The notes under the pieces are model-generated. The model had not been told where the DNA came from. It saw nothing but the letters and a program-made list of their open reading frames with translations, and searched no databases. Positions 6,797 to 33,165 of a stretch of DNA of 64,000 nt are shown in pieces (the first letter of the stretch is position 1; every line of letters starts with the position of its first letter). This DNA is from a bacterium (lineage in GTDB: Bacteria; Zhuqueibacterota; Zhuqueibacteria; Residuimicrobiales; Residuimicrobiaceae). The stretch spans positions 3,948-67,947 of the forward strand of contig DAIQOA010000001.1 of the NCBI GenBank assembly GCA_036788095.1, given 5' to 3'. The position numbers were made by a program, and so were the translations under genes.

Positions 6797-6804
6797 CGAG
6801 CGCC

Positions 6805-12442: not shown

Positions 12443-12506
12443 AATCTTCATTTTTCAGGCGGCATAAAAGGACTCTGCCTTGTTACGGTGCATCCGACCA
12501 CGCTTC

Positions 12507-14753
12507 ATGTTGCTCCTCCTTTTGGGTTTGATCAGTTCCCTCATGGCCCAGCCCATTCGCGACAGCCGGCCGCGCACATCCGCGCGTCTGCACAAAACCG
12601 CCATCGATGATTATTGGCATTTTCATAACGCCGGAAATCTCGGATTGACCGTCACCAACTATGGCGTGATCGGCGAAGGCTATAATAATCCGGATCAGCC
12701 CTCCTGCATGTACAAGCTGCATGCCGATAACATGCGTTATCAGATCGAACATATGTCCTTCGGCGGTCTCTGGGTCGGCGGCCGCAGCGAGGCGGACGGC
12801 GCGGTACACGTCTCCACCGCCATTGTGGACGGCGTGTTTGAAGCCGGCGAAGAGGGCTTTGAGTTTACCAACAGCGAAGCGGCCGGCGATACGATACAGA
12901 TTCGCTCGACCATCGTCACCTCTCCTTATTTTTCTCCGCAAGCGGTATCGCATCAGGACTTTGTCGCCACCTTTACGGATCTGAACACCCGCGTGCCCGG
13001 AAGCGACTTTGAAATACCCAACCACACTCCGCTCGGCCTCAGCATACGCCTCGAGTCCTATGCCTGGAATTACAGTTACACCGATGCGTTTGTCATCCTC
13101 AACTATACCATCACCAACGTTTCACGGTATACCATTGAGGACGTCTTTGCCGGCCTCTGGGCGGATGCCGCGGTCGGCAATATGAATTACACCAGCATCT
13201 ATACGCCCGGCGGCGGCTGGTCGTGGTACGACAACATGAACGGATTTGATCAGGGCTACAAACTGGCTTATCAATTTGATGCCGATGGCGACGACGGATT
13301 CGCGCAGAGCTATTTCGGTCTGCGTTATCTGGGCTCCTCCCGCCGCCGTGATTCCGTTCAAGTCCATTATGACCAGTGGCGCTGGTCCGCCAGCGCGGCC
13401 ATGGATTTTCCAGAGTATGTTATGCCGATCAACGATGAGGGCCGGTACGAGGTTCTACGCGGCCGGCATACAGGAAGGTATTACAACGAAGTCACAGACG
13501 GCGGCATTCCAACCGATCCGGCCAGCCGGGGCAGCTGGATGCTGGTGCTCAGCGCCGGCCCGCTGGCTACGCTGGCGCCGGGAGGTTCCACCACCGTGAC
13601 CTTTGCGATTGTCTGCGGCCTGTGGGCTACGCAGGAGTCGAACGACACCCCCGGCCGCCGCGCCAACCTTCGACTCAATTCCGATTGGGCGCAGATCGCC
13701 TATAACGGCGAAGACGTGGACGGCGACGGTAAACTCGATCCCAATGAGGACCAGAACAACAACGGAATCCTCGACGGCCAGGAGGATGTTTACCGTTCTG
13801 ATTTTGATCTGAACAGAAACAGCCGCTGGGATGCCGGCGAGCCGGTTTTCGGTGACGGCGATGGCCATCTCGATATTGAAGAAGACGTGCACCACAATGC
13901 CATCAAGGGCATTCAACCGGGCAACGGAGTGATCGACCGCTTTATTCTTCCCAGCCCGCCGCCTTCTCCGAACCTTCTCGCTGTTCCCGGCGAAGGCCGG
14001 GTAACGCTCTATTGGGATAAGGTGTCGGAGGAGTACGAAGACCCCATCACGCGCGAAAAAGACTTTGAGGGATACCGCATCTACAGCTCTCCCAAAACCG
14101 CTTCCTCCGCAGAGGAACGCACGCTGCTGGCGGAATTTGACCGGATCAACGACCTGGGATATGACACCGGCTTTGCCGCGGTTGCGGTCGATACGGTCAT
14201 CGACGGCCGGCGCTATTTTTACCGCTTCACCAACACCGAGCTGCTCTCCGGCTGGCCGGGTCAGTACTGGTTCAGCGTCACCGCTTTTGACCGCGGCAAT
14301 CCGACCAACAATCTGCCCAGCCTGGAAAGCTCTGTGCTGGAGAACAAGATTTATGCGGTCATCGGATCTCCCGCCAGACCGGCCGGCAGCGCGCTTCGGG
14401 TCGGCGTCTTTCCCAATCCCTACCGCGGTCAGGCCCTGTGGGACGGCGACAGCGACCGCGACCAGATGCTCTGGTTTTTCAATTTGCCGGCCGAAGCCGA
14501 GGTGCGCATCTACACCCTGGCCGGCGATCTGATCGATGAGTTCCGCCATCATGGCAGCAGTTATCGCGGTGAAGACGTCAACCTGATGCAACAAAAGATC
14601 GGCGGCAGCAACACCGTACTGCCGGGCGGACTGCACGCCTGGGATTTAATCTCCTCCTATGATCAGGCGATCGCCACCGGATTGTATTTTTTCAGCGTCA
14701 AGGACGTGGAAACCGGGGAAATTCAGACGGGAAAATTCGTCATCATCAAATAA
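12507..14753 (+). CDS. secreted T9SS cargo protein with thrombospondin-type-3-like Ca-binding Asp repeats, an Fn3-like module and a type-A T9SS C-terminal sorting domain
   Basis: Signal peptide MLLLLLGLISSLMAQP (open from 12480). D-rich repeats 'DVDGDGKLDPNEDQNNNGILDGQED...GDGDGHLDIEED'. The C-terminus 'VFPNPYRG...EVRIYTLAGDLI...GLYFFSVKDVETGEIQTGKFVIIK' resembles the Por secretion tail. Confidence 0.7.
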   Translation: MLLLLLGLISSLMAQPIRDSRPRTSARLHKTAIDDYWHFHNAGNLGLTVTNYGVIGEGYNNPDQPSCMYKLHADNMRYQIEHMSFGGLWVGGRSEADGAVHVSTAIVDGVFEAGEEGFEFTNSEAAGDTIQIRSTIVTSPYFSPQAVSHQDFVATFTDLNTRVPGSDFEIPNHTPLGLSIRLESYAWNYSYTDAFVILNYTITNVSRYTIEDVFAGLWADAAVGNMNYTSIYTPGGGWSWYDNMNGFDQGYKLAYQFDADGDDGFAQSYFGLRYLGSSRRRDSVQVHYDQWRWSASAAMDFPEYVMPINDEGRYEVLRGRHTGRYYNEVTDGGIPTDPASRGSWMLVLSAGPLATLAPGGSTTVTFAIVCGLWATQESNDTPGRRANLRLNSDWAQIAYNGEDVDGDGKLDPNEDQNNNGILDGQEDVYRSDFDLNRNSRWDAGEPVFGDGDGHLDIEEDVHHNAIKGIQPGNGVIDRFILPSPPPSPNLLAVPGEGRVTLYWDKVSEEYEDPITREKDFEGYRIYSSPKTASSAEERTLLAEFDRINDLGYDTGFAAVAVDTVIDGRRYFYRFTNTELLSGWPGQYWFSVTAFDRGNPTNNLPSLESSVLENKIYAVIGSPARPAGSALRVGVFPNPYRGQALWDGDSDRDQMLWFFNLPAEAEVRIYTLAGDLIDEFRHHGSSYRGEDVNLMQQKIGGSNTVLPGGLHAWDLISSYDQAIATGLYFFSVKDVETGEIQTGKFVIIK

Positions 14754-14807
14754 ACGCATCACTGGTCGAGGCCGAGGGGTAAAAGACCTTCAGAAAGGAG
14801 CTGCACT

Positions 14808-17441
14808 TTGAAAAAAGCGATACTGGTTTTGTTGGTACTGGCTGTATGGAGTTCCGCAGGGGCTCAGGTCACTTTAATCCGCGACATTCAATACACCACC
14901 GCCCCCACCGGGGATTCGCCGCTTAAGGATCAGATTGTGACCATCAGCGGTGTGGTCACCGGCGAAATCTATGCTTTTAAAAACAGCTACTATTATGTGC
15001 AGGACGCCAACGCCCCCTGGTCCGGCATCAAGGTGTACGACAAAACCCATTTCGCCGCCCAGGGCGATCGCGTCACCCTGACGGGAAAGGTGGCCGAGTA
15101 CAAGGGCGTCACCGAGATCACCACGGTAACCGCTTTTACCGTAGATTCCACCGGCAGCAACTGGATTCAGCCCATGGCCGTCACCACCGGCGAGATCGCC
15201 ACCACCGGCGCCAATGCGGAGGCCTATGAGGGCTGCCTCGTTCGCGTAGGTCCCGCCACCATCACCAATCCGAACCTCGGCTATGGCGAGTGGCAGATCG
15301 ATGACGGCTCCGGGCCCTGCCGCGTCGATGACGAGACCAAGTATTATTTCCTTCAGGCCCAGTATGGCTCTGTGCAGTCGATCACCGGCATCCTCGACTT
15401 TGCCAACAACGACACCAAGATCGAGCCGCGCCTGGCCAACGACGTGATCGAAGAAGGACCGTACACCCGCATCCAGCGCATTCAACAGGTGCGTTACAGC
15501 GATCTGCTGAAAACGCCGACGCAGAACGCCGCGGATAAGAGCTATATGGACGGCGACACCATGACCGTCAGAGGCATCGTTACCATGCCGACCGGATTGT
15601 GCTACGCCGGCGCAGGCATTAAATTCACCTTTGCCGCCCCTGAAGGTGGCCCGTGGTCCGGTCTGCTCTCCTATCATGCCGATTCAACGGCCTATGGATC
15701 CCTGTATGAAGGCGATGAAATTGTCATGACCGGTTATATCTCAGAGTACACCACCGCCCCCTCCAACATGACCGAATTTTTCATCACCAGTCCCATCGAT
15801 ATTATCAATTTCGGCCAACCCCTGCCCAAAGTCGACTCGATCAAAACAGGCGATCTGCGCTGGCCCACCACTGCTGAGCAGTGGGGCACCTGTATGGTCA
15901 AAGTAGGCAACGCCAAAGTCACCTATCTGACTCCGCAGTACGAATTGTTCGAGATCGATGACGGCAGCGGCGGGGTTCTGGTCGACGATGAATCCGACAG
16001 CATCCGCAATTATCCGGATCCGCCTCTGAAATCGACTTTTGAATCGATGCAGGGTTGGGTCTATCATCATTACGGGTATTACACCGATTCCACCGCTTAC
16101 AAACTGGAGCCGCTCTATCGCACGCAGATGGTGCTGGGCGCCGCTCCGTTGACGGTTAAAAACACCAAGCGCAATCTCGCTGGCGCCATGCCGACGCAAG
16201 CCGTCAGCGTTACCACCACCTTGGATCCAGCGGCCAATGTCGGCTCCGCTAAACTGTTTTACAAAGTCAACGAAGGCGCTTATGCTGAATTGCCCATGAC
16301 GATGAACAACGGCGTCTATGGAGCCGAGATCCCGGCTCAAGCGCTTGGCAGCGTTGTTAACTATTATATCGAGGCCGTGGATAAGGGTGGGCAAAAAACC
16401 TATGATCCGCCTGATCAGACGGTGGCGAATTACACCTATCTGGTGCTGGACGGCAATCCCACGCTGGCGCAGGTGCAAAAAACCTACTGGCCTTCGGGAG
16501 ATAGCCCGTTCCAGAATTTCACCGTGACGGTGGAAGGCGTAGTGACGGCGGACTCGCTGTTCTATGCCAAATACGGCGCGTATCCCATTCAAGACGCGGC
16601 CGGCGCGTGGAACGGCCTGTTCATTCTGGGCAAAGTGCCCAACTCGCTGCATCGCGGCGACCGAGTCCGCGTGACCGGCAGAGTGGAGGACCACAACGCC
16701 GCCTACCTGTATAAATGGGAGGGCAACACCCAGATCCTCGCCGACACCACCATCGTCCTGGCCAGAGCGCAGGAACTGCCCGCGGTGGTGACGGTGACCA
16801 CCAATGATCTGAAAAGCAAGAGCGCTTTGGCCGAGCAGTACGAGGGCGTGCTGGTGCAGGTGAGAAACGCCACCCTGACGGCGGTCAATTCCTATGATGT
16901 GACGATCAACGACGGCAGCGGCGAATGCCTGCTGGACGGGGATGCGTTCATCGGCCGTGATCAGGATGCCAATCCCAATTTCTACATCAATCGAACCGCC
17001 AAAGTGCTGATCGTCGCCGGCGATACGGTCAAGATCGGCGAACAGATCAAAATGGCCCAGGGTGTTTTTCTCTACAGCTTTGGCAGCCATAAAATAGAAA
17101 TCCGCGACCTCAGCGATATCGGCACCACCACCGGCGTGCTCAACGCGGTCGTTGCGCAACCGCTCCGCTTTAGCCTGGAGCAGAATTATCCCAATCCGTT
17201 CAATCCGGAGACGCGGCTGTACTTTCAGATTCCTGAAACGCAAAACGTGCAGTTGGTTGTTTATAATATCCGCGGCCAGATCGTGCGCAATCTGGTGGAC
17301 AACCGCCTCGATGCCGGCGATCATATCGTCAATTGGGACGGCCGTGACAACCGCGGCAATCCGGCGCCCACCGGCGTCTACATCTATCGCATCAAAGCCG
17401 GCGATTACATGGCTGCGCGCAAGATGACGCTGGTGAAATAA
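14808..17441 (+). CDS. secreted T9SS cargo protein made of three tandem OB-fold-like modules (of the kind found at the N-termini of ExeM/NucH/Xds-type extracellular nucleases) plus an Ig-like domain and T9SS CTD; no catalytic domain recognised
   Basis: Signal peptide MKKAILVLLVLAVWSSAGAQ. Three modules begin with I(R/Q)DIQ/Y...GD(S)P...VT(V/I)(S/R)G(V/I)VT... and contain 'EGCLVRV'/'EGVLVQV' and '(W/F)EIDDGSG' strands. The canonical CTD is 'YPNPFNPETRLYF...VVYNIRGQIVRNL...GVYIYRIKAGDYMAARKMTLVK'. Confidence 0.7.
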   Translation: MKKAILVLLVLAVWSSAGAQVTLIRDIQYTTAPTGDSPLKDQIVTISGVVTGEIYAFKNSYYYVQDANAPWSGIKVYDKTHFAAQGDRVTLTGKVAEYKGVTEITTVTAFTVDSTGSNWIQPMAVTTGEIATTGANAEAYEGCLVRVGPATITNPNLGYGEWQIDDGSGPCRVDDETKYYFLQAQYGSVQSITGILDFANNDTKIEPRLANDVIEEGPYTRIQRIQQVRYSDLLKTPTQNAADKSYMDGDTMTVRGIVTMPTGLCYAGAGIKFTFAAPEGGPWSGLLSYHADSTAYGSLYEGDEIVMTGYISEYTTAPSNMTEFFITSPIDIINFGQPLPKVDSIKTGDLRWPTTAEQWGTCMVKVGNAKVTYLTPQYELFEIDDGSGGVLVDDESDSIRNYPDPPLKSTFESMQGWVYHHYGYYTDSTAYKLEPLYRTQMVLGAAPLTVKNTKRNLAGAMPTQAVSVTTTLDPAANVGSAKLFYKVNEGAYAELPMTMNNGVYGAEIPAQALGSVVNYYIEAVDKGGQKTYDPPDQTVANYTYLVLDGNPTLAQVQKTYWPSGDSPFQNFTVTVEGVVTADSLFYAKYGAYPIQDAAGAWNGLFILGKVPNSLHRGDRVRVTGRVEDHNAAYLYKWEGNTQILADTTIVLARAQELPAVVTVTTNDLKSKSALAEQYEGVLVQVRNATLTAVNSYDVTINDGSGECLLDGDAFIGRDQDANPNFYINRTAKVLIVAGDTVKIGEQIKMAQGVFLYSFGSHKIEIRDLSDIGTTTGVLNAVVAQPLRFSLEQNYPNPFNPETRLYFQIPETQNVQLVVYNIRGQIVRNLVDNRLDAGDHIVNWDGRDNRGNPAPTGVYIYRIKAGDYMAARKMTLVK

Positions 17442-17477
17442 GGCTGTTTTTTTTCGCCGAGGTTTTGTAAACGGCGC

Positions 17478-17522
17478 AGGCGGGCTGAGGCGCGTTGGCT
17501 CAGGTTCAACGCCCTCAGCCCG
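17478..17522. other. strong imperfect hairpin (GGGCTGAGGCGCGTTG...CAACGCCCTCAGCCC) 37 nt downstream of the 14808 gene; possible terminator or processing site
   Basis: 15/16-bp inverted repeat with no clear U-tract on either strand. A T8 run lies immediately 5' of it (17446-17453). Confidence 0.35.
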
Positions 17523-17650
17523 CACAGGCGCTCACGCAGCAAAAAATGGCCGCTCGCGACGATTCACTCGTTCGGTTGAACGGTGGAACGCGGCGACCCT
17601 GAGGAAGGTTGGATCAAAGCAACGCTGTTTCATTTTTTATTTGCGTGTAA

Positions 17651-19156
17651 ATGAATTCTAAAAACCCATACATCGTCGTTTTATTCAGCCTGCTGCTGAT
17701 CATGGGATGCGGTCTCAAGGATCCGTTCGGCGATCGCCGTGATTCGAATCCCGTGGGCAATCAGCCGCCGCAAACCCATCTGTTTCTTCAGGTGTCGCAA
17801 ACGCAGATCAGCGTGCACGACACCCTGACGGATGGAACCATTGTGACCAAGACCTACACCGCGGGATTGGATACAACGCCGAGCCGGCAGATCGTACACT
17901 GGTGGGGCGATGATCCGGACGGCACGGTGGCCGGGTATTACTATCAATGGGATTATCAAGCGTCGCCCGTATACACCACTCTGGAGTATGATACTTTTTA
18001 TGTGCCCATCCGCAGCCACTACGACGAGTTCACCTTCAAGGTCTGGGCGGTGGACGATCAGGGATTGCAGGATCCGACGCCGGCGGAGCTGCGCTTCCCG
18101 GTCTACAACACGCCGCCGGAGATCTCCTTTCGTCTGAACACCAATCCGAGCATCACCGGAAATCCGAATGTAACCGCCTACACCTTTCCCACACGGACTT
18201 TTATCTGGGACGCCTCGGACGACGATGGCCGGCAGACCATCACCCATATTTTGTATGCGCTGGACGACACCAGCTCCTGGCGCTCTTTGCCGGGGGATGT
18301 GGATCAGATCACTCTGCGAGATATCCAGCCGGGCGAGCACCGTTTCTTTGTCAAAGCGCAGGATATCTCCGGCGCCACCAGCCGTACGATTTCATTCCCC
18401 GATCCCGCGGACGCTTCGGTGCCGTTGCACTGGGTGGTCAAACCGGTGCAGGGCGGAGTGCTGCTGGTCAACGATTTTGCCCAGGATCAGCGGCTGTATC
18501 AGGTGCAGAGTTTCTACACGGAGATTTTAAGCGAATTGTTGGGACCGGAAGGCTATTCGGTCTGGGAGATCGGTTCAGAGACGACGCCGCTGATTAATTC
18601 CCAGAACGCTTTGCCCTATTCATCCCTCGACATCGAGGCCAATCTGGCGTATTTTGAAAAGGTCATCTGGTTCGCGCATCTTGGTCGGCCGCATTTGAGC
18701 GCCGCCGGACTGAGCATCACCCGCTTTGCCGGCCGCGGCGGCAAGATTTTCATCAGCAACGGCAATGAAGAGACGCCGGACACCACCTGGATGTTCACCA
18801 GCCTGGACTCGGTATACCGGTTGAATCCCGGCGGCCGTCTGCTGGCCGGCGTCAATGTGCTCGCCAGCTTTGGCAGCGCCGATGACCGTCAGTTGGATCT
18901 GAAACTGGAAAAAATGATCGGCAACCGTGTGTCCGCCCTGGTGCCCGGTCCCGGCGCCGAGGTGGTATGGCGAATGGAGCCGGACAGTTCCGCCACCATC
19001 ACAGTGCCCTATAAAGGATCGCCCGCGGTGGCGTTGCGCTATCCCATCGGTTCGGGCAAGTGCATCTATTTCTCCCTGCCGTTGCATCTGTGCGATGGCC
19101 ATAAAAATATGACCGGCTTTTTCCGCTACCTTCTTTTTGAAGAATTTAATCGTTAA
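17651..19156 (+). CDS. hypothetical lipoprotein (Ig-like N-terminal repeats + α/β C-terminal domain), first gene of the TBDR cluster
   Basis: Lipobox 'LLLIMGCG'. Two similar β-sandwich segments ('WAVDDQGLQDPTPAELRFP', 'FVKAQDISGATSRTISFP'). C-terminal 'GGVLLVNDFAQD...KIFISNGNE' looks GATase1/ThuA-like. Confidence 0.55.
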   Translation: MNSKNPYIVVLFSLLLIMGCGLKDPFGDRRDSNPVGNQPPQTHLFLQVSQTQISVHDTLTDGTIVTKTYTAGLDTTPSRQIVHWWGDDPDGTVAGYYYQWDYQASPVYTTLEYDTFYVPIRSHYDEFTFKVWAVDDQGLQDPTPAELRFPVYNTPPEISFRLNTNPSITGNPNVTAYTFPTRTFIWDASDDDGRQTITHILYALDDTSSWRSLPGDVDQITLRDIQPGEHRFFVKAQDISGATSRTISFPDPADASVPLHWVVKPVQGGVLLVNDFAQDQRLYQVQSFYTEILSELLGPEGYSVWEIGSETTPLINSQNALPYSSLDIEANLAYFEKVIWFAHLGRPHLSAAGLSITRFAGRGGKIFISNGNEETPDTTWMFTSLDSVYRLNPGGRLLAGVNVLASFGSADDRQLDLKLEKMIGNRVSALVPGPGAEVVWRMEPDSSATITVPYKGSPAVALRYPIGSGKCIYFSLPLHLCDGHKNMTGFFRYLLFEEFNR

Positions 19157-19160
19157 GCGA

Positions 19161-21884
19161 ATGAAGATTTTTAACAAATTTATCTTGTTACTTTTGTGTG
19201 CGACCGCTGCCTGGGCCCAATCGTCGCTCATTCGAGGCCGGATTACCGACAAGCGCACCAAGGAGACGTTGCCCGGCGTCAACGTCTCGGTCCCTGGAAC
19301 CTACAAAGGCGCGGTGACCGATATCGAAGGCGTCTACGAGATCCGCGACCTGGCGCCCGGCGACTATGATCTCAAGGCGTCCCTTATCGGCTACACCGTC
19401 CAGGTGCGCACCGGCGTTCATGTGGAGCAGGGAAAAACCACGCAGATTGATTTCAGTCTCGAGGCCACGGTCCTGGCCCTGGGCCAATCCGTCGAGGTCA
19501 TCGGTAAAAAACCGCTGTTCGAGACCGACATCACCGCCTCGCAACAGCACATCTCCTCCGAAGAGATCGAACAAAAGGTGGTGGAGAGCGTCACCGATCT
19601 GGTGGGCGAACAGCTCGGCGTGGTGGTTCAGGACAACAAGATCCATATCCGCGGCGGCCGCGCCGATGAGAGCCTGTACATCATCGACGGTCAGTCCATC
19701 AAGGACCCGCTGTCCGGCTATTCCAACACCCTGTACGTCAACGCTGCCGCAGTCAAGGATCTCAAGGTCATCACCGGTGGCTTTGACGCCGAGTACGGCC
19801 AGGCCATGTCCGGCGTGGTGGACATCGAGACCAAAGAGGGCGACGACCATTATTCCGGCGGTGTGAGCGTCAAATCGGACAACCTCGCCCACGGCCTGTT
19901 CCCCTCGTTCAACACCGACATCGTGCAGCTCACCCTCGGTGGTCCTGAGCCCCTCACCCACCGTCTGCTGCCCGCCATCGGGCTGCGTTTCCCCGGCAAA
20001 CTTAATTTTTTTCTCAGCGGGTACGGCAACATCAGCGACACCTATCTGCCGCATGCGGACCGGCTCTCTCCGGCCAAAGCCTCGTATGAAAAATTCGCTT
20101 CGCGCCAGGAGAATGATTGGCATCTCATGGGCAAACTCTCCTGGGAGATCAAGCCGGGCCGCAAAGTATCGCTCTCCCATGATCGCTCTTTGAACATCAA
20201 CCAGGGGTATTTTACCTCTCTGGCGACCGACATCGGCGGCTTTCCCTATGACTATTCCAAAATGCTGGATCACTATAACACCCTGACCAAAGAAGCCAAC
20301 CTGACCACGTTGCAGTGGATCCACACGCTCAACAGCCGCACTTTTTACCGCATGACCCTGTCCCGCTTTTTCACCAGCATCCACTCCGCGGTGCAGAACA
20401 AGCACTGGAGCGCCTATCAGGAAGGGCTGGACCTGCTGCCCATTCTCTACATTCCCGATTCAGAGGGCAACGTGAAAACCCGGTACGGCGACGGCTTTTT
20501 TGACACCGGCGATGCCGAAGGGTGGTACGACTATTTCAGCGACAATTGGACGATCAAAACCGATCTCACCACACAGCCGAACGACAAACACTCGATCAAA
20601 GCGGGCGTTGAGGCGCGCTATACGGACATGCAAGTGGTGGATATCAACGCGCCCTGGTACGGCGAGAGCGGCCTGGGGCGCAACCATGATTATTTTCGCG
20701 TCTACCCCAACGATGGCGCTCTTTATCTGCAGGATCGCATCACCTACGACGGCATGATCGTCAACATCGGCCTGCGCTACGACTATTGGTTTCCCGGCAA
20801 ATTTGTCGACGACGCCATCAAGGATTCCAACACTGTGACCATCACCGATGCGGCGCGTGTGAAGTATCAGGACGAAACCTTCGAGCTCTGGGGCTTGCGC
20901 GGCAAAAGTCATCTCAGCCCGCGATTGGGCATCAGCCATCCGGTCACCGACAACGACGTGCTCTATCTCCATTATGGCCATTTTTCCCAACAGCCCAAAG
21001 GCCAGTATGTGTATGCCAAGCTGCGCTCCACCTCGGAAGCGACATATCAGCTTTTCGGCAATCCCAACCTCAAGCCCACGACCACCGTGGCCTACGAGTT
21101 GGGACTCAAACACCGGTTCAACGCCAACCAGACTCTGGAGATCAAGGCCTACTACAAGGATATGTTTGATTATCCTACCGCGGCCACGGTGCGCAAATTC
21201 AGCCCCCGTTACGGCAACATCAGCTTTCTCATGTATGTGAATATGGATTACGCGCGGGCCCGCGGGATCGAGATGCGCTTTCGCCGGCGTTACAGCCAGT
21301 TCCTCAGCGGCAATGTCGATTTCACCTATGCCCTGGCCACGGGCAAGAGCTCAACGCCCAACACCAATCTGCTGGTCGCCGCGGGCAAGGTGTCGGAAAA
21401 GCCGTTGGGAGAGAGCCGGCTCAGTTGGGATCGCCCCTACCGCCTGTCGACGGATCTCTATTTCGATATGCCGGAGAAAGCCAACATTCGTTTGGCCGGG
21501 GTGCGGTTGCCGGAAAAATGGGGATTGACCCTGCGCTGGGAATACGAGTCAGGCAAACGCTACCGCCGCATCATCGATGTGGCCGATAACGTCTATGAAA
21601 AGGATGAATACGGCTCCCTGTCCGACCCCTGGATGCGCCTGGATCTCAAATGGTACAAAGAGTTCGAGTTGTTCAAGACGCATCTGGCCCTGCTGGTCGA
21701 AGCGGAGAACGTGTTCAACGCCAAGGTGCCGCGCATCATCAATCCAGTGACCGGCCGGCCGTATCAGCCGGGCGATGTGATCCCGGTCAGCTGGTATGAT
21801 GATCCTGATGATTTGCCGGCCACCAATCCGGCGCGCTACGACTGGCCGCGCCGGGTGATGACCGGATTGGAGATAAGGTTCTGA
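19161..21884 (+). CDS. TonB-dependent outer-membrane receptor with N-terminal carboxypeptidase-D-regulatory-like domain (SusC/RagA-type architecture)
   Basis: Signal peptide MKIFNKFILLLLCATAAWAQ (alternative start 19137). CarbopepD_reg 'IRGRITDKRTKETLPGVNVSV...TDIEGVYEI'. Plug 'LYIIDGQSI', followed by a long β-barrel ending in aromatic 'GLEIRF'. Confidence 0.8.
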   Translation: MKIFNKFILLLLCATAAWAQSSLIRGRITDKRTKETLPGVNVSVPGTYKGAVTDIEGVYEIRDLAPGDYDLKASLIGYTVQVRTGVHVEQGKTTQIDFSLEATVLALGQSVEVIGKKPLFETDITASQQHISSEEIEQKVVESVTDLVGEQLGVVVQDNKIHIRGGRADESLYIIDGQSIKDPLSGYSNTLYVNAAAVKDLKVITGGFDAEYGQAMSGVVDIETKEGDDHYSGGVSVKSDNLAHGLFPSFNTDIVQLTLGGPEPLTHRLLPAIGLRFPGKLNFFLSGYGNISDTYLPHADRLSPAKASYEKFASRQENDWHLMGKLSWEIKPGRKVSLSHDRSLNINQGYFTSLATDIGGFPYDYSKMLDHYNTLTKEANLTTLQWIHTLNSRTFYRMTLSRFFTSIHSAVQNKHWSAYQEGLDLLPILYIPDSEGNVKTRYGDGFFDTGDAEGWYDYFSDNWTIKTDLTTQPNDKHSIKAGVEARYTDMQVVDINAPWYGESGLGRNHDYFRVYPNDGALYLQDRITYDGMIVNIGLRYDYWFPGKFVDDAIKDSNTVTITDAARVKYQDETFELWGLRGKSHLSPRLGISHPVTDNDVLYLHYGHFSQQPKGQYVYAKLRSTSEATYQLFGNPNLKPTTTVAYELGLKHRFNANQTLEIKAYYKDMFDYPTAATVRKFSPRYGNISFLMYVNMDYARARGIEMRFRRRYSQFLSGNVDFTYALATGKSSTPNTNLLVAAGKVSEKPLGESRLSWDRPYRLSTDLYFDMPEKANIRLAGVRLPEKWGLTLRWEYESGKRYRRIIDVADNVYEKDEYGSLSDPWMRLDLKWYKEFELFKTHLALLVEAENVFNAKVPRIINPVTGRPYQPGDVIPVSWYDDPDDLPATNPARYDWPRRVMTGLEIRF

Positions 21885-21889
21885 TCACG

Positions 21890-22912
21890 ATGGCAGGAAG
21901 GAATCGATATAGCCTGAACACGGCGCTGCGTTACGTATTTTTGTTGACCGCCGTGCTGTTTTTAAGCCGGCCGGCGGACGGGCAAGGGCTTTTACCCCGG
22001 CTGGGTGAGCAACGCGCCGGCACCGCCTCCCTGACGTTTCTCAAGATCGGCGTGGGCGCTCGAGCGGTCTCCATGGCCGGCGCCTATGTGGCCATGGCCA
22101 ACGACGCCTCCGCAACCTATTGGAATCCCGCCGGCCTGGTGCAGATCGGCCGTAACGAACTGGTCGTTTCGCACTCCGACTGGCTGGTGGATGTTGATTA
22201 CGAATATCTGGGCTATGTGCATCAAGTGACGCGGAATTTAAGCCTGGGCGCTTTTGCAGGCTATCTCCATTTTGCCGATATGCCGGTGACCACCGAGTAT
22301 CATCCTTACGGCAACGGCGATTATTTTTCTTATCACGACTGGGTGGCCGGGCTGAGCGCTTCGCTCAAAATGACAGACCGGTTTTCCTTCGGCGTGACCG
22401 CTAAATACGCGGCCGAGGAACTGGCCGGTCTGCGCATGGGCGGCCTGCTGCTGGACATGGGCACCTATTACTGGACCGGCTACAAAACCCTGCGCCTGGC
22501 CGCTGCCCTGCGCAATTTCGGCAACGACATGCGGCCGGCTGGAACCTATCTGCGCACAAAAACCAGCGGCGCTACGGTCACCTCCTATCAGGCGTTCTCG
22601 CCGCCGACGCTCTTTACTCTGGGCGCGGCTATGGACGTGTATCAGTCGGACGCCCATCGGGTCACCGCGACGGTGCAGATGAATCATCCCATGGACGATC
22701 AGGAAAATTTTCTCATGGGCGGCGAGTACCGGTTCCGCTCGCTCTTTGCCTTTCGCGGCGGCTATCGCGCCAGCTCGGGCGAGAATCACTGGACCTTTGG
22801 CGCCGGCGCCAAGTTCATCCTCAAGGGAGCGCATCTCAAGATCGATTATGCCTATGCGGATTACACCCATTTGACCATGACACAGCAATTCACCTTTGGA
22901 TTTGAATTTTAA
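21890..22912 (+). CDS. PorV/PorQ-family (T9SS-associated, FadL-like) outer-membrane β-barrel protein, co-transcribed with the TBDR
   Basis: Signal peptide, then the family hallmark 'GARAVSMAGAYVAMANDASATYWNPAGL'. 340 aa with alternating amphipathic β-strands and a terminal 'FTFGFEF'. Starts 6 nt after the TBDR stop. Confidence 0.6.
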   Translation: MAGRNRYSLNTALRYVFLLTAVLFLSRPADGQGLLPRLGEQRAGTASLTFLKIGVGARAVSMAGAYVAMANDASATYWNPAGLVQIGRNELVVSHSDWLVDVDYEYLGYVHQVTRNLSLGAFAGYLHFADMPVTTEYHPYGNGDYFSYHDWVAGLSASLKMTDRFSFGVTAKYAAEELAGLRMGGLLLDMGTYYWTGYKTLRLAAALRNFGNDMRPAGTYLRTKTSGATVTSYQAFSPPTLFTLGAAMDVYQSDAHRVTATVQMNHPMDDQENFLMGGEYRFRSLFAFRGGYRASSGENHWTFGAGAKFILKGAHLKIDYAYADYTHLTMTQQFTFGFEF

Positions 22913-24150
22913 TGAAGCGCACTGATTACATGGTCGTCGTCGCGCTGTTGACCACCCTGGGATGCAGCGAGTACAAGATGCCGCTGCCGAGTCCGGCCAC
23001 CGGCAGCCTGTCCTTCGGCGCCAATGACACCAGCTATGTGGAGCTCCAGCCGCAATGGGACGCCGCGTATCTGGGCGTGCCGCTGCAGGCGCCGGGGGAT
23101 TTGACCATCAGCGCCGACGGCACGCTCTATCTGGCGGATGAAGGGGCAGACCGGATTTACGCCCTGAGCAAAGCGGGCCGCATTCTTGGTGATTTCGGCC
23201 AGAATGCGCTGGACGCGGTAGCCAAGCCACGCGCGCTGGCCATGGACAGCAAGCTGAATCTGCTCATCGTCGACGGCACCCACACGCTGTATATCTGGAA
23301 TCAATTCTTGAATCGCATTCCCATCGATTCGGTGGCGGACTCCGCCATCTTTTTCGACCGGGAGAAAAACGAAACCGTTCAGTTGACCCTCGAGGAGTGG
23401 TCGCAGCGCGTCAGCGCAGGAGCCTCTTCGTTGATGCTGCGCCGTTATCTCTTTCGCAGCGATCCGGAACGCATCGCCGCCGCCCGCGGGATCTATCCGG
23501 CGTATCAGGACGAGGACGCGGCTGCGCAGTATAACGGCGTTGCCGCGGGCAAATACAGCGAAGAGACGGTCTACCTGACGGAATCCCACACCGATCGGAT
23601 TCTGCAACTGCTGCTGATGCCGAATCTGGCGTTTAAAGGAAAAGACCGGAGCGTGCTGTTCGGGTACAGGGCGGTGCTGCAAAAGACCGTGGCGGTTTTC
23701 GGCTCCGGATCAGGCACTGTGGATGATCCCTGGGCCATCACCACCGACAGCGATGAAAATCTATATTTCACCCAATTGGGCGGCAATTTTCGCGTGCAGA
23801 AATTGAGCGCCGCCACTTTTACGCCGCGCTATGTGCTCTATCAGCATGCGATCATGGATCTCGAGCGGTTCGTCGCGCCCTATGATATGGCGCTGGACGG
23901 ATCGAACCAAATTTTTGTCCTTGACGGCGCTACCGGCGCGGTGACCAAGTTCGCCAACTCGGGGAGCAAAGCCGGACAGATGCTCAGTCTGGGAAAAAAG
24001 GGGCTGGCTCTGGCTCGTTTTCAAGAGGGAAAAGGGCTGCTGGTCAGCGATCAGGTCGTCTATGTGGTCGAACGCGGCGCCCGGTGCATCCGCCGGTTTC
24101 AGTATTCCGTCTCGGAATCTGATCTTCCCTATGACGACAAAAAACCTTGA
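22912..24150 (+). CDS. NHL-repeat / six-bladed β-propeller lipoprotein
   Basis: Lipobox 'ALLTTLGCS'. NHL-like blades 'LYLADEGADRIYAL', 'LLIVDGTHTLYIW', 'IFVLDGATGAVTKF', 'VYVVERGARCIRRF'. Start overlaps the upstream stop. Confidence 0.6.
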   Translation: MKRTDYMVVVALLTTLGCSEYKMPLPSPATGSLSFGANDTSYVELQPQWDAAYLGVPLQAPGDLTISADGTLYLADEGADRIYALSKAGRILGDFGQNALDAVAKPRALAMDSKLNLLIVDGTHTLYIWNQFLNRIPIDSVADSAIFFDREKNETVQLTLEEWSQRVSAGASSLMLRRYLFRSDPERIAAARGIYPAYQDEDAAAQYNGVAAGKYSEETVYLTESHTDRILQLLLMPNLAFKGKDRSVLFGYRAVLQKTVAVFGSGSGTVDDPWAITTDSDENLYFTQLGGNFRVQKLSAATFTPRYVLYQHAIMDLERFVAPYDMALDGSNQIFVLDGATGAVTKFANSGSKAGQMLSLGKKGLALARFQEGKGLLVSDQVVYVVERGARCIRRFQYSVSESDLPYDDKKP

Positions 24151-24267
24151 TGGTCAAGGCAGGAAAGGAGGCCTGGAGATCACATAAAAGAGTACGCACA
24201 AAGAAGAAAGGGGCGGTTGGGCAGCCGTTCGTTTTTCGGATAACCTTATTTTTGGAGGAGTGGAGTT

Positions 24268-26982
24268 ATGAAAAAAATTTTCAAGGTGGCGGGAGCGCTG
24301 TGCCTGTTGTTTATATTCGCCGCCGGCTCGTACGCACAGACAGGCAAAATCGTCGGTCGCGTGATCGACGCCACTATGAAGCAGGAGATGATCGGGGCTA
24401 ACGTGCAGGTAACCGGTACCATGCTGGGTGCGGTGACGGATGTGCGCGGGAATTACACGATCACAGGCGTGCCGGCCGGCACTCATTCATTAAAAGTTTC
24501 CTTTGTCGGTTACCAGACGGCTGAAGGTTCAGCCGCGGTCACCGCGGGAAAAACGACGGTCCTAGATTTTGCGTTGACGCCGACGATGATCATCACCAAG
24601 GGCATCAGCGTTTTTGCCGACCGCGCCAAGGAGCGCGAGACCCCGGTGGCGTTCACCAACATTCAAAAACAGGAGATGGTGCAAAGACTGGGTTCCCGCG
24701 ACATTCCGCTGGTGCTCACCACGGCGCCGAGCGTGTACGCCACCCCTTCGGGCGGCGGCGCGGGAGATGCCCGCATGAACATCCGCGGTTTTGATCAGCG
24801 TAACGTAGCCATCATGATCAACGGCGTGCCGATCAATGACATGGAGAACGGCTGGGTGTACTGGTCCAACTGGGACGGCGTTTCCGACGCCACCTCCTCG
24901 ATCCAGCTGCAGCGTGGCCTCAGTGCCGTCAATCTGGCCACCCCCTCCATCGGCGGTACGATGAACATCATCACTGATCCCAGCGCACAGTCCGCCGGCA
25001 TCATCGCACGGCAGGAGATCGGCAGCGGCGGTTTTCTCAAGACCACGGTCAGCGCCGCCAGCGGGCTGCTGAACGGCAAGTTCTCCGTCAATGGAACAGT
25101 GGTGCGTAAAACCGGCGACGGCATTGTCGACGCGACCTATACCGACGCCTGGGCGTATTATTTGGGAGCGGCCTACAACCTCAACACCAACAACCGCATC
25201 GAGCTGTATGCCATGGGCGCTCCGCAGATGCACGGCCAGAATATCAACAAGCAGAACATCGGCGTTTTCAACAAAGAATTCGCTCTGGGCCTCGAGGGGT
25301 ACGATCCGGCGGCGGCCGACAAATATGTCGAGTCCTCCTCGGGCGTCAAGTACAATCAGAACTGGAACACCGTCAGCTCGTCCTACGCCGGCAAACAGTA
25401 CTGGAATGGAAAAACGCACGATCGCCAGACCTCGGACGTCCTCTACGAACGGGAAAACTATTATCACAAGCCGGTCGTGAACCTGAACTGGTACTCCAAG
25501 CTCAGTGAAAAAGCGGGCCTCTATTCGGTGGCCTATTACGCCGGCGGCCGCGGTGGCGGCTCGGGCACTTACGGATCAGTGACCAGCGATAAGAGCCAAT
25601 TCCCCAATCCCAGAGATTGGAACGCGACCATCGCCAAGAACCAGGCCAGCACCACCGGCGCTTTGGGAGTGCTGCGCAACAGCACCAACAATCAGGATGC
25701 TTTCGGCGCCATCTCCAAACTCAACTATGCGTTCAGCAAAAATCTCAAGAGCGCGATCGGCGTCGATTGGCGTACCGCATCCATCGATCATTACCGTGAA
25801 ATCCGCGATATGCTCGGCGGCGCCTATTATGTCGACCTCAAGGCCGACAAGGTCAGTCCGCGCAGCGACTTTTGGACTGCTGAACAGACTCAGCGCAAGC
25901 TGGGCGACCGGATCGATTACGATTTCACCAACAGCGTCAACTGGATGGGCTGCTTTGGTCAAGTAGAGTATACGCTGAACAAAATCAGCACCTACGCCAT
26001 GGCCGGCTGGTCGACCATCAAGTACGACCACACCAACCATTTCAAAAAAGACGAGGCCGGCAAAGAGCTCTATTTGGAGAGCGACTGGATCGGCGGCGCG
26101 CAGGTTAAAGGCGGCGCCAGCTATCGCGCCACGGAGAGCATGGATATCTACGCCAACATCGGTCATGTTTCCAAGGTGCCGATTTTTGACAACGTCATCA
26201 GCGACGTCACCTCATCTCTGGCCGCGGCGCCGGTGAATGAAAAATTCTTTTCCATGGAAGCGGGCGTCAATATGCGCCTGCTGACCAATCAACTGGTCGG
26301 CAAGGTGAACATCTATCGCACCACCTGGATGGACCGCGCAAAATCCTATTCCATCATCGATGCCAACGGCGACGAGTCCATCGTTTTTGTCACCGGCATG
26401 GATCAGTTACATCAGGGCGTTGAGGTGGAGCTCGCTTACCAGCCGGTCAAACAGGCCCGGCTGGATGGAACGGTCAGCGTCGGCGACTGGACCAACACCA
26501 GCGACGTCAGCGGCTATTATAAGGATTACTCCGGCGGCGTAGAGACCGACAAGAGCTACAATTTCTACGTGGACGGCCTCAAAGTCGGCGATCAGCCGCA
26601 AAAGATGCTAGCCCTCAGCGCCAGCCTCTTTCCGCTGAACGGCATGACCCTGGAAATTTCGGCCCGTCACTATCGCGATCACTTTTCCTCCTGGGATCCC
26701 TTTGGCCGCTCCAACGCGGCCGATCGCACTCAGAGCTGGAGAGCCCCGAACTATACGCTCCTTGACCTGCATGCCGCCTACACGCTGCCGGTTCAGGTCG
26801 GCAGGGCCAAAATGCAGGTGTTCGCCCACTGTTTCAACCTGCTGGATGAGCTTTACATCCAGGACGCGGTGGACAACAGCAGCTACAGCTCTTTTGGTCC
26901 CAAGACGCATGCGGCGGATGACGCCGAGGTCTGGATGGGCCTGCCGCGCAATTTCAATCTGGGCCTTCAGGTCAGCTACTAG
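24268..26982 (+). CDS. TonB-dependent outer-membrane receptor with CarbopepD_reg N-domain (second copy)
   Basis: Strong GGAGG RBS. Signal peptide 'MKKIFKVAGALCLLFIFAAGSYAQ'. 'GKIVGRVIDATMKQEMIGANVQVTG...TDVRGNYTITGV', plug 'IMINGVPIND', C-terminal 'NLGLQVSY'. Confidence 0.8.
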   Translation: MKKIFKVAGALCLLFIFAAGSYAQTGKIVGRVIDATMKQEMIGANVQVTGTMLGAVTDVRGNYTITGVPAGTHSLKVSFVGYQTAEGSAAVTAGKTTVLDFALTPTMIITKGISVFADRAKERETPVAFTNIQKQEMVQRLGSRDIPLVLTTAPSVYATPSGGGAGDARMNIRGFDQRNVAIMINGVPINDMENGWVYWSNWDGVSDATSSIQLQRGLSAVNLATPSIGGTMNIITDPSAQSAGIIARQEIGSGGFLKTTVSAASGLLNGKFSVNGTVVRKTGDGIVDATYTDAWAYYLGAAYNLNTNNRIELYAMGAPQMHGQNINKQNIGVFNKEFALGLEGYDPAAADKYVESSSGVKYNQNWNTVSSSYAGKQYWNGKTHDRQTSDVLYERENYYHKPVVNLNWYSKLSEKAGLYSVAYYAGGRGGGSGTYGSVTSDKSQFPNPRDWNATIAKNQASTTGALGVLRNSTNNQDAFGAISKLNYAFSKNLKSAIGVDWRTASIDHYREIRDMLGGAYYVDLKADKVSPRSDFWTAEQTQRKLGDRIDYDFTNSVNWMGCFGQVEYTLNKISTYAMAGWSTIKYDHTNHFKKDEAGKELYLESDWIGGAQVKGGASYRATESMDIYANIGHVSKVPIFDNVISDVTSSLAAAPVNEKFFSMEAGVNMRLLTNQLVGKVNIYRTTWMDRAKSYSIIDANGDESIVFVTGMDQLHQGVEVELAYQPVKQARLDGTVSVGDWTNTSDVSGYYKDYSGGVETDKSYNFYVDGLKVGDQPQKMLALSASLFPLNGMTLEISARHYRDHFSSWDPFGRSNAADRTQSWRAPNYTLLDLHAAYTLPVQVGRAKMQVFAHCFNLLDELYIQDAVDNSSYSSFGPKTHAADDAEVWMGLPRNFNLGLQVSY

Positions 26983-26996: not shown

Positions 26997-27027
26997 AAGC
27001 CCCCAGCCACGGGGGCTTTTTTTTTCT
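26997..27027 (+). terminator. rho-independent terminator after the second TBDR
   Basis: AAGCCCCCagccacGGGGGCTT followed by TTTTTTTTT. Confidence 0.6.
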
Positions 27028-27100: not shown

Positions 27101-27129
27101 TTGACATTCACCGCAAATCGTGATAACTT
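27101..27129 (+). promoter_or_regulatory. putative promoter of the ogt-nudix-ssb-like operon (-35 TTGACA, 17 nt, -10 TAACTT)
   Basis: TTGACA at 27101-27106, a 17-nt spacer, and TAACTT at 27124-27129, ~30 nt upstream of the ogt ATG. Confidence 0.35.
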
Positions 27130-27161
27130 TTTATAATTTATGCGGGGAAAAGGAGAGAGGA

Positions 27162-27668
27162 ATGGCGAAACAGTTATCCTACTGCCTTTATGCCTGGGAC
27201 CCGGCCAATCTGATGTTGGTCGCCTCTGAGCAGGGTTTGTTCCGGATCGAATTCGTCCGCCCGGGCGAAGAGGACCGGTTCCTCACCGCTTTGCCGCCGG
27301 CGGTTCATTTGGTCAAGGACGAGCGTGCTTTCGACAAGGTGCGGACGCAGCTGGATATCTATTTTTCCGGCAAGCCGGTAAAATGGCAAATGGCGCTGGA
27401 TGTATCGTCCGGCACGGATTTTCAGCAAGTGGTGTGGTCGGCCCTGCGCCGGATTCCCTATGGGAAGACCATCACCTATGGACAACTGGCCCAGAGCATC
27501 GGCAAGCCCGGCGCCAGCCGTGCGGTCGGTACGGCCAACGCCGCCAATCCTCTCCCGGTCATTATCCCCTGTCATCGCGTGGTGGCCGGCAGCGGCCGCT
27601 TGGGCGGATTCAGCGGCGGCCTGCACATCAAACAGGCGCTGTTGCGGTTGGAGGGGGTTCTGCTGTAA
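27162..27668 (+). CDS. ogt: methylated-DNA--protein-cysteine S-methyltransferase (O6-alkylguanine-DNA alkyltransferase)
   Basis: Start MAKQLSY with AAGGAGAGAGG RBS. Active site 'PCHRVV'. 'TYGQLAQSIGKPGASRAVGTANAANP' is the HTH/asparagine-hinge region. Confidence 0.85.
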   Translation: MAKQLSYCLYAWDPANLMLVASEQGLFRIEFVRPGEEDRFLTALPPAVHLVKDERAFDKVRTQLDIYFSGKPVKWQMALDVSSGTDFQQVVWSALRRIPYGKTITYGQLAQSIGKPGASRAVGTANAANPLPVIIPCHRVVAGSGRLGGFSGGLHIKQALLRLEGVLL

Positions 27669-28429
27669 TGGCGGTGTATCGCACTCTGGCCAGAGGAAGT
27701 TGGCGCAGCGACCAAGTACGCATGGAGTGGCGTGCGGAATTTCATGCCCTGCCGGAGGTTCTGCAGCCTGAAGTCGAACGCCTGTGGCGGGAGAAGGAAA
27801 AGCAGGGTCACTTTAACGGCCATATGGCCCGGCTGGATGGGTACGAGATGCAAAACAGCTGTCTGTGCTTGCGTCTGTCCACCGGCGATTATCGAACATT
27901 GATGTATTCAAACGCCTTTACGGAACAGCTGTTGCGCGATTGGTCCGCTCAGGCCCTGTCCTGCGCTCTGGGCATCAGCGCTCTGGTGCGCAGCCGCGAC
28001 GGCCGGGTGGCGCTGATCCGGCGCAGCGACACGGTCGGCGAATATCCGGGGCACCTCGATGTGTTCGGCGGCCACATCGATGAGACGCTGCGGGGGAATG
28101 AACACGCCGCTTTTTTAGCCATGCGGCAAGAGCTGGAGGAAGAAGCGGCGCTGAAAAGCGAAGAATACGATTTGCAGTGCTTTGGCCTGATCGAGGCGCT
28201 GGACCATCGCAAGCCGGAATTGCTATTTCTCGCCGACTGTCGGCTGACGGCGGATGAGATCGCGGCGCGAGTGCGTGAGGCGGTCGATCGCCACGAGTTG
28301 CAGCAGCTGCTGTTTTTTCCCGATCAGGGCAAGGCCCTCGAGCGGGTGCTGGCGGTTGAAAGGATGATCAGTCCGTCCGCGGTGGGATGTGTGGAGGAAT
28401 ATATCAAAGCAGAGCGAGGACAAAGATGA
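27668..28429 (+). CDS. NUDIX hydrolase, translationally coupled to ogt (TAATG overlap)
   Basis: Nudix box 'GGHIDETLRGNEHAAFLAMRQELEEEAAL' (GX5EX7REUXEEXGU-like). Start at 27668 overlaps the ogt stop. The upstream part of ORF 27383.. is an alternative frame of ogt. Confidence 0.7.
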   Translation: MAVYRTLARGSWRSDQVRMEWRAEFHALPEVLQPEVERLWREKEKQGHFNGHMARLDGYEMQNSCLCLRLSTGDYRTLMYSNAFTEQLLRDWSAQALSCALGISALVRSRDGRVALIRRSDTVGEYPGHLDVFGGHIDETLRGNEHAAFLAMRQELEEEAALKSEEYDLQCFGLIEALDHRKPELLFLADCRLTADEIAARVREAVDRHELQQLLFFPDQGKALERVLAVERMISPSAVGCVEEYIKAERGQR

Positions 28430-28510
28430 TGGGCGGAGAAAAGTTTCCTCATTCGAGAAAGATAAGCCAAAAAACAGACCTCATCAATATTAATAAAACG
28501 TGATCAGGCC

Positions 28511-29011
28511 ATGAAAGAAAAACACAAACATCATCACAGAAAGCAGCATCGGCCGGCGGTGGAGCCCCTGCAGGTCGATCCCAACAAATCCTATGATTTC
28601 CCCAATGTCAACCGGGTGGTGGTGGCGGGAATGCTGATGCAGGACCCGCCGCTGCGCTGGACCTCGCGCGGCGTGCCGGTGACCAACTTTGTCATCTGCA
28701 CCGAGCCCGAAGCGGAAGCCGGCGCACTGGAGGGCATGGAGCGGGAACATTGCTACATCAGCGTTGTCGTCTGGGCTCAGCAGGCGGTGCAATGCAACAA
28801 ATATTTGAAAAGAGGCAACAGCGTGCTGATCATCGGCGAACTGCAGTCCATGCCCAACAGCGCGCCGGAGAAAGTCTATTATCCCATTCAGATCAACGCC
28901 CAGTGGATTCAGTATCTGGAAAAGGGCCTGGTGACCGCCATCGATCCGAGCTATGAGAACCAGGGCAACGGGATTCTGGAAACCTCGGAGAACACCACCA
29001 CCGGCGCCTAG
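28511..29011 (+). CDS. SSB-family OB-fold protein (single-stranded DNA-binding-like) with His-rich N-terminus and no acidic C-terminal tip
   Basis: 'NRVVVAGMLMQDPPLRWTSRGVPVTNFVICTE' and 'YISVVVWAQQAVQCNKYLKRGNSVLIIGELQS' align with the SSB β1-β3 and L45 regions (E. coli '[31 protein letters not shown]', '[31 protein letters not shown]'). The N-terminus is MKEKHKHHHRKQHR and there is no DDDIPF tail. Confidence 0.65.
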   Translation: MKEKHKHHHRKQHRPAVEPLQVDPNKSYDFPNVNRVVVAGMLMQDPPLRWTSRGVPVTNFVICTEPEAEAGALEGMEREHCYISVVVWAQQAVQCNKYLKRGNSVLIIGELQSMPNSAPEKVYYPIQINAQWIQYLEKGLVTAIDPSYENQGNGILETSENTTTGA

Positions 29012-33073: not shown

Positions 33074-33114
33074 GGCGCCGCCGCTCGGTTTCGATTTAAA
33101 TATCCATCAGGTAA

Positions 33115-33143: not shown

Positions 33144-33165
33144 GGCGATAAAAGCGGGCGGCTAT

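Follow-up and report, generated by a model that had tools for sequence, protein, structure and literature searches.

A conserved, predicted outer-membrane module couples a TonB-dependent receptor gene with its own PorV/PorQ-family barrel and secreted partners

The window analysed here is a 64,000-nucleotide (nt) stretch of contig DAIQOA010000001.1 (positions 3,948-67,947, forward strand; assembly GCA_036788095.1) from a bacterium of the Zhuqueibacterota (Residuimicrobiaceae), and within it seven consecutive plus-strand genes, designated A to G, occupy positions 12480-26982. The first six (A-F, 12480-24150) form one conserved module that is predicted to work at the outer membrane. As judged from gene order and family membership, its invariant core is a TonB-dependent receptor of the D clade, a secreted protein of the A family and a PorV-like barrel, here E. 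We propose that E is a dedicated anchor that would hold the retained C-terminal tails of A (and of B, a second secreted protein) beside the transporter D, doing a job like that of SusD, and we put the probability of this reading at about 0.5. The first-pass annotation of this DNA had drawn the unit at 17651-26982, from C to G; the conserved unit takes in A and B and leaves G outside.

A (12480-14753) encodes a 757-amino-acid (aa) secreted protein of an uncharacterised family with a signal peptide and is a member of the core, and B (14808-17441) encodes an 877-aa secreted OB-fold protein with a signal peptide and a type-A type IX C-terminal domain, an accessory of the class-1 loci described below. 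They are followed by C (17651-19156), a 501-aa lipoprotein with two immunoglobulin (Ig)-like domains and a class-I glutamine-amidotransferase (GATase1)-like domain; D (19161-21884), a TonB-dependent receptor with a CarboxypepD_reg domain, a TonB-box-like segment, a plug and a barrel; E (21890-22912), a 340-aa outer-membrane barrel of the PorV/PorQ family; F (22912-24150), a 412-aa NHL beta-propeller lipoprotein; and G (24268-26982), a second TonB-dependent receptor that is a variable neighbour outside the module. The order lipoprotein, receptor, PorV/PorQ barrel and NHL lipoprotein had been read correctly beforehand. C to F are all present on the plus strand and tightly packed, with 4 nt between C and D, only 5 intergenic nt between the stop of D and the ATG of E, and a 1-nt overlap of E and F (TAATG), so that E does start right after the receptor and F does overlap the stop of E. 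For D, the open reading frame (ORF) call gives a TTG start at 19137; a normal signal peptide begins at the ATG at 19161, which lies 4 nt past the stop of C. The 117-nt gap between F and G contains a weak terminator-like hairpin (24211-24230, plus strand), found by a terminator scan and in the sequence, which likely marks the 3' end of the A-F unit. A strong terminator called by the same scan lies 3' of G at 26997-27018. The 209-nt gap between B and C holds a GC-rich hairpin (17480-17523, plus strand) without a T-tract on its 3' side; it was read directly from the sequence, was not called by the terminator scan, and could be a site of attenuation or processing that separates the cargo genes from C-F. 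A promoter scan, uninformative for this phylum, gave no convincing sigma-70 site upstream of A or C.

Conservation was followed in two collections of loci. A scan for relatives of E with one genome per species gave 29 loci, whose gene order was read by tblastn with all window proteins, and metagenome contigs scanned with an alignment of PorV-like proteins gave 80 loci. All loci were scored with hidden Markov models (HMMs) and assigned to class 1, the type found in the window (n = 70), or class 2 (n = 45), and lineages were defined as clusters at 62% identity of E. The order A-B-C-D-E-F recurs in KSB1, Calditrichota, Marinimicrobia/Neomarinimicrobiota, Ignavibacteriales and some unclassified genomes; it is conserved over at least 16 lineages, with the identity of E falling to 41%, and three further loci from exact-protein look-ups have the same order. 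Of the 54 class-1 loci that are informative, 53 have the end of a D-clade receptor gene no more than 800 nt upstream of the E orthologue, the median gap being 5 nt; this places the arrangement far beyond chance. The synteny on which the first-pass annotation had staked its proposal is thus retained across several phyla, as part of the longer A-F order.

Class 2 consists of three tightly packed genes: first that of a receptor, then one for an A-like protein (730-1570 aa), and finally that of a PorV-like barrel; B is absent. The barrel gene follows the A-like gene at a median distance of 7 nt in 35 of 36 loci, and 27 of 28 have a D-clade receptor upstream. The A-like proteins of this sister module share the supersandwich, fibronectin type III (FN3) and C-terminal regions of A, and otherwise have only sub-threshold matches to type IX tails. 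The composition of this trio identifies receptor, A-family protein and barrel as the core, with B, C and F as class-1 additions. Furthermore, an HMM of the D family scores the class-2 receptors that adjoin PorV-like barrels at 313-511 bits over their full length and G at only 69 bits; hence the families of receptor, A-type protein and PorV-like barrel have diversified together. By the same comparison of loci, the strongest partner of the PorV-like barrel is predicted to be A, which had no place in the unit as first drawn. One barrel of class-2 type (L077, 4567-5598), with an HMM score of 340, between the two classes, is the sole one with ample upstream sequence and neither an A-like gene nor a D-clade receptor upstream.

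The receptor itself is well defined. D exceeds the Pfam cut-offs for CarbopepD_reg_2 (65.7 bits), Plug (41.1 bits; cut-off 23.9) and OMP_b-brl_3 (49.7 bits; cut-off 27), and reaches 98 bits with the TonB-hemin subfamily model, below the cut-off of that model. A motif G(Q/E)xV(E/Q/V)VIG, conserved in 24 D orthologues, lies between the N-terminal domain and the plug, where a TonB box is expected, and would be consistent with one. D had been described as SusC-like; it falls outside the SusC/RagA subfamily, with 60.2 bits on TIGR04056 against a cut-off of 368 and a match in the N-terminal part only. The observation that a SusD partner is missing holds, as no match to the SusD family was found among the window proteins scanned. 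To our knowledge, SusD is essentially confined to Bacteroidota; for this reason, and because D is not of SusC type, the idea that the barrel stands in place of SusD in this operon carries less weight than it might seem to. G had been taken for a second, paralogous receptor with its own terminator. The terminator is there, but close paralogy did not hold up: G is 30% identical to D over the N-terminal 190 residues only. In the tblastn survey, G was found in only 4 of the 29 genome loci (L001, L003, L007 and L029, the closest relatives). These counts, the N-terminal-only likeness and the 69-bit score rule out G as a member of the unit or a close paralogue of D.

E was assigned to the PorV/PorQ family by the first-pass annotation from a motif, and profile searches bear this out. 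It scores 188.3 bits with the NCBIfam PorV_fam model NF033709 (cut-off 90) over profile positions 2-326 of 326, and 37.3 bits with Pfam PorV PF19572 (cut-off 27); its orthologues in other phyla score 176-211 bits on the PorV/PorQ family model, and 2218 relatives were found at E<=1e-5. Its best match among solved structures is Flavobacterium johnsoniae PorV (6h3i_F, E-value 4.6e-6, residues 42-178 aligned). From this alignment and the full-length profile match, the 14-stranded, FadL-like barrel of the family is predicted for E. Given the full-length family match and PorV as best solved relative, E is not a member of an unrelated porin or FadL family. On profile scores E is a separate subfamily within PorV/PorQ, neither PorV, PorQ nor PorV2, because it misses all three equivalog thresholds (PorV NF033710, 62.7 versus 250 bits; PorQ NF033711, 78.1 versus 220; PorV2 NF052325, 66.2 versus 325). 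The motif itself, GARAVSMAGAYVAMANDASATYWNPAG, is present at residues 55-81 as an N-terminal hatch segment with NPAG; it had been quoted with the spelling MG where the protein has MAG. Barrels of class 1 and class 2 alike keep the N, P and A of WNPAG without exception, and a conserved NPA sequence is a mark of the FadL hatch. One may therefore ask whether E is a plain FadL-type channel for a hydrophobic or amphipathic compound, sharing an operon with D and binding no cargo. The PorV family does lie within the FadL superfamily, and besides the NPAG motif E gives 28.2 bits with Toluene_X, just under the cut-off of 29.7, and an above-threshold match to UPF0164. However, the full-length PorV_fam match is far stronger, and a lipid channel leaves unexplained why the class-2 barrel gene lies within a few nt of a type-IX-tail gene in nearly every locus, which makes this alternative quite unlikely.

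The secreted partners show where such an anchor might act. A consists of an N-terminal beta-supersandwich, a linker of Ca-type acidic repeats, an FN3 domain and a divergent C-terminal beta-sandwich of type IX type, and the supersandwich, FN3 domain and C-terminal sandwich are all seen in its AlphaFold2 (AF2) model. The C-terminal sandwiches of A resemble those of PorZ and PorU, and its N-terminal domain resembles the supersandwich of glycosidase N-domains and would suit a glycan. At E<=1e-30, a library clustered at 50% contains 447 representatives of the family, called "hypothetical protein" wherever the source gives a name. Residues 24-83 of A (window positions about 12549-12728) contain many invariant residues across 62 homologues while the AF2 confidence (pLDDT) is 27-49, and this segment may fold only against a partner. 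B comprises three OB-fold modules of the ExeM/NucH and DUF5689 type with a middle region like a carbohydrate-binding module (CBM), and ends in a type-A C-terminal sorting domain (TIGR04183, 36.1 versus 23 bits; Pfam FlgD_ig, 41.8 versus 27). It combines a signal-peptidase-I signal with this type IX tail, so it is not a lipoprotein, and the C gene lies between B and D. The tails are conserved above the rest of both proteins: the C-terminal domain is the best-conserved part of A in distant comparisons (50-51% versus 37-44% overall), and that of B reaches 55% against a protein average of 44% in the Marinimicrobia locus L031. A disposable signal would not be expected to show such conservation.

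From these observations a mechanism in four steps can be proposed. First, A and B would be exported by a type IX system, as their C-terminal domains suggest. Second, their tails would stay uncleaved on the extracellular loops of E, as PorZ does on PorQ and PorU on PorV; such retention is suggested by the linkage of the genes, by the resemblance of the fold to PorU/PorZ and by the unusual degree to which the tails are conserved. Third, E would pack against the barrel of D, to which translational coupling and co-diversification point, so that A and B, with the lipoproteins C and F, could form a capture platform over the transporter. Fourth, D, in which a plug, a barrel and a TonB-box-like motif are observed, would take in the captured ligand with TonB energy. 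E with its type IX cargo might thus play the part that SusD and surface lipoproteins play for SusC.

Parts of this scheme have precedents. PorV-family barrels bind type IX C-terminal domains, PorZ and PorU are type IX proteins that keep their tails bound to PorQ and PorV, and cognate carrier barrels can be encoded beside their cargo, as for type-B cargo with PorP/SprF, where the tail is uncleaved (PMC10202324). In addition, the FadL-like barrel BamG sits against a second barrel and keeps hold of a lipoprotein at the surface (PMC12578637). For further phyla of the Fibrobacterota-Chlorobiota-Bacteroidota (FCB) group, type IX systems have also been suggested (PMC11285876). With tail-binding barrels, cargo-adjacent carriers and the BamG example at hand, E as a dedicated anchor is the simplest reading. 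The earlier suggestion that the PorV-like barrel recruits type IX cargo to the transporter is supported by gene linkage for the OB-fold candidate, B, which is a conserved operon member, but not for the peptidase-type cargo, which is unlinked to the module; physical recruitment by E is putative. Two other proteins with type IX tails are encoded in the window at 46939-47811 and 56185-58824 (both plus strand), one with a lamin-tail domain (LTD) and the other with C39-like peptidase, CARDB and Big_13 domains. Their position far from any module implies a general type IX system. The gene at 61222-63021 (minus strand) encodes 599 aa with Reg_prop repeats. Its matches to PorZ_N beta-propellers are weak, far below threshold, and the product may be a PorZ-like component.

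The same tails bear on a more radical alternative, in which D and E are themselves a dedicated export and assembly route for A and B, with E recognising the tails and D serving as the conduit, and no classical type IX system involved. Receptor, cargo and carrier are strictly co-inherited, and a type IX system is unconfirmed in these phyla from available sequence. We know of no precedent, however, for a 22-strand plugged TonB-dependent barrel acting as a protein exporter, and tails of the same type on proteins encoded far from the modules speak for a general system instead, so this idea is extremely unlikely.

A further alternative takes A and E as a local type IX attachment or sorting pair like PorZ-PorQ, with D serving the secretion machinery, for example in glycolipid supply or export. 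The C-terminus of A is like those of PorZ and PorU, and the sole curated-model match of A is to the C-terminal end of the PorZ model (E 0.006). E also scores slightly better on PorQ than on PorV (78 versus 62.7 bits), and the module sits among housekeeping genes without a regulator among the most frequent neighbour families. Moreover, PorZ binds anionic lipopolysaccharide (A-LPS), which would suit the glycan-binding-like fold of A, and PorZ is described as providing A-LPS (reviews PMC10202324, PMC11285876). Against this stand equivalog scores that are every one far under cut-off, and a profile scan in which neither A nor B showed a peptidase C25 domain (the PorU sortase) or PorZ-type beta-propellers. 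D, too, has an importer-type plug and a TonB-box-like motif. In addition, one genome with a class-1 cluster (L034) has an additional PorV-family gene, whose product is 32% identical to E, then a 257-aa ORF and then a D-clade receptor (137-4411), and such a second barrel and receptor copy fits transporter families better than a single machine. The contig of this second copy begins just upstream, where any A-like gene would be cut off. On balance an attachment pair is unlikely. The three alternatives considered so far (a lipid channel, an exporter and an attachment pair) each explain less of the linkage pattern than a dedicated anchor does.

The two lipoproteins complete the class-1 version of the module. 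C has the lipobox LIMGC, and its AF2 model (pLDDT 84.5) shows two Ig-like sandwiches and an alpha/beta domain resembling class-I glutamine amidotransferases (ThuA/GIFT-like), in agreement with its earlier description as an Ig-like plus alpha/beta lipoprotein; no sequence family matched. A role for C as an enzyme was rejected because the GATase1-like fold lacks the conserved Cys/His triad. F combines the lipobox LLTTLGC with NHL repeats, follows E in class-1 loci, has an NHL protein in the same place in L018, and is the least conserved member of the module.

Several points weigh against E as a dedicated anchor. The contacts of E with D, A and B are predictions from gene linkage, the modelled structures being single chains, and the C-terminal domain of A has only sub-threshold matches to curated type IX models. 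A full type IX system (SprA, GldKLMN) is a presumption for these organisms. C and F may face the surface or the periplasm, their role in a surface platform being a proposal. A survey of 60 proteins encoded next to the module in 16 lineages, read from the 25 most frequent of its 83 families, shows no enzyme or regulator and no family that recurs beyond A and F; no riboswitch or leader RNA was found at the module. A locus like a polysaccharide utilization locus (PUL) or the Ddb locus, with its own enzymes, was rejected on the same survey, which shows no nucleases, glycosidases or regulators. Two loci also depart from the pattern. In L009, D is missing from the 1.9 kb up to the contig end, and in L030 (7734-12323, complete genome CP070762.1) D is cut to its C-terminal 474 residues. 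In L009 (1-8200, Calditrichota-like), a HigA-like helix-turn-helix (HTH) gene and small ORFs lie upstream of E. In L030 a DUF2283 gene precedes E-F and A, B and C are not nearby, as if the module had decayed or been rearranged there.

As to what the module might take up, A would suit a glycan and the OB folds of B (ExeM/NucH and DUF5689 type) nucleic acid. The anchor reading can be refined for class 1, the class with B, as an apparatus for capture and uptake of extracellular DNA, a distant analogue of DdbC/DdbD and RA0C_RS04915/RS04920, in which the OB-fold DNA binder is delivered by the type IX system and tethered by E instead of being a lipoprotein, and the DNA serves nutrition or transformation. 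DdbCD of Bacteroides thetaiotaomicron, a DUF5689 lipoprotein with a CarboxypepD_reg-type transporter, mediates DNA utilisation, and the Riemerella anatipestifer pair RA0C_RS04915/RS04920 is needed for natural transformation. The three OB-fold modules of B are homologous to the N-terminal region of the extracellular nucleases ExeM/NucH (73 bits, NCBIfam ExeM_NucH), and among 16 orthologues and paralogues of B, 11 match the nucleic-acid OB fold tRNA_anti-codon, six match DUF5689 (best 1e-15) and four match the ComEC-type DUF4131. SSB-family genes lie just downstream of the module in KSB1 and in L009, where E-F are followed by a canonical single-stranded DNA-binding protein (SSB), cytidine deaminase (cdd), uridine kinase (udk), thymidine kinase (tdk) and a nucleoside permease. 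The Marinimicrobia cluster, moreover, is flanked by LTD and OB-fold paralogues and an HHH_3 protein. On the other side, B of the window stays under the DUF5689 cut-off (20.7 versus 28.6 bits), yet covers the full model length, no nuclease is encoded in A-F or found in the neighbour survey, and the adjacent pst/phoU genes are not conserved neighbours. In particular, the invariant partner A looks glycan-binding, not DNA-binding, and the sister module does without B. DNA uptake by class 1 is therefore doubtful at present. More broadly, we tentatively envisage a widespread class of uptake machines in FCB phyla other than Bacteroidota, in which type IX cargo, docked non-covalently through retained tails on a dedicated PorV-like barrel, would form the ligand-catching lid of a TonB-dependent transporter, and the six-gene version with the triple-OB protein could be DNA-capturing, for nutrition or transformation.

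Some features around the modules deserve mention in their own right. A phosphate cluster lies just upstream of the module in the window (5093-10990), with phoU (minus strand), pstS, a fused pstC/A, two pstB and a gene for a calcineurin-like phosphoesterase (minus strand). A link of the module to the phosphate regulon was rejected, as pst, phoU and metallophosphoesterase genes are absent beside it in other genomes. Downstream, at 27120-29011 (plus strand), an Ogt methyltransferase gene shares about 285 nt with a long ORF that has a weak NUDIX match and whose true start is probably near residue 100. The third gene encodes an SSB-family protein that lacks the acidic C-terminus typical of such proteins. 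In many KSB1 relatives these three genes come after the module. A stretch of about 1.9 kb (31918-33847) has no ORF of 100 aa or more in the gene call and no Rfam match. In the Marinimicrobia locus L031, paralogues of B with LTD, OB-fold and type IX tail flank the module (1-250 and 12932-21110). The locus also contains a 300-aa ORF whose PorV-like match is weak (34 bits), and it encodes a large protein carrying an HHH_3 domain of ComEA type.

In Bacteroidota, the surface partners of TonB-dependent transporters are well characterised (SusCD). Far less is known of such partners in the related, mostly uncultured KSB1, Calditrichota, Marinimicrobia and Ignavibacteria, for which the module is a concrete candidate, and three co-diversifying families are now defined, namely the D-clade receptors, the PorV-like subfamily and the A family. 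If the anchor reading is right, PorV-family barrels do more than take part in secretion: they also serve as permanent adaptors through which secreted proteins are attached to a transporter. If B binds DNA, receptor-based DNA uptake, so far seen in Riemerella and Bacteroides, would extend to several other phyla.

A comparison with known systems puts the module in context. In the literature searched, we found neither a receptor operon described as including a PorV-family barrel of its own and type-IX-type partners nor a Por protein placed within a TonB-dependent receptor operon. Like the SusC/SusD utilisomes, the module has a CarboxypepD_reg TonB-dependent barrel in a tight operon with surface-located partners, lipoproteins among them, that presumably capture ligand above the barrel. 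It differs in having no SusD and a receptor outside SusC/RagA, with type IX cargo and a second barrel as proposed partners, and no locus enzymes or regulators in the neighbour families surveyed. With PorZ-PorQ and PorU-PorV of Porphyromonas gingivalis it shares a PorV-family barrel paired with a secreted protein whose C-terminal domain would be a retained dock, and C-terminal sandwiches in A that resemble theirs. However, E fails the equivalog thresholds, A and B have neither sortase nor propellers, and a TonB-dependent receptor operon is the setting here. The arrangement in which a cargo gene adjoins its own PorV-like carrier gene is known from SprB-SprF and PG1035-PorP, where the cargo tail is uncleaved (PMC10202324), whereas here the barrel is of PorV/PorQ and not PorP/SprF type, the tail of B is type A, and no receptor is present in the known cases. 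DdbC/DdbD and RA0C_RS04915/RS04920 unite a CarboxypepD_reg TonB-dependent barrel with a DUF5689/OB-fold protein predicted to bind DNA, and relatives of B match DUF5689, but there the OB-fold partner is a lipoprotein adjoining the barrel, the locus contains nucleases, and a PorV-like barrel, an A-family protein and an NHL lipoprotein are missing. Finally, BamG of the Bacteroidota BAM is likewise a FadL/PorV-like barrel that acts as a structural subunit on another barrel, its loops holding a surface protein (PMC12578637), although its partner is BamA instead of a TonB-dependent receptor and the protein held is a lipoprotein, not type IX cargo. The parts of the module are therefore of known kinds, and their combination appears to be new.

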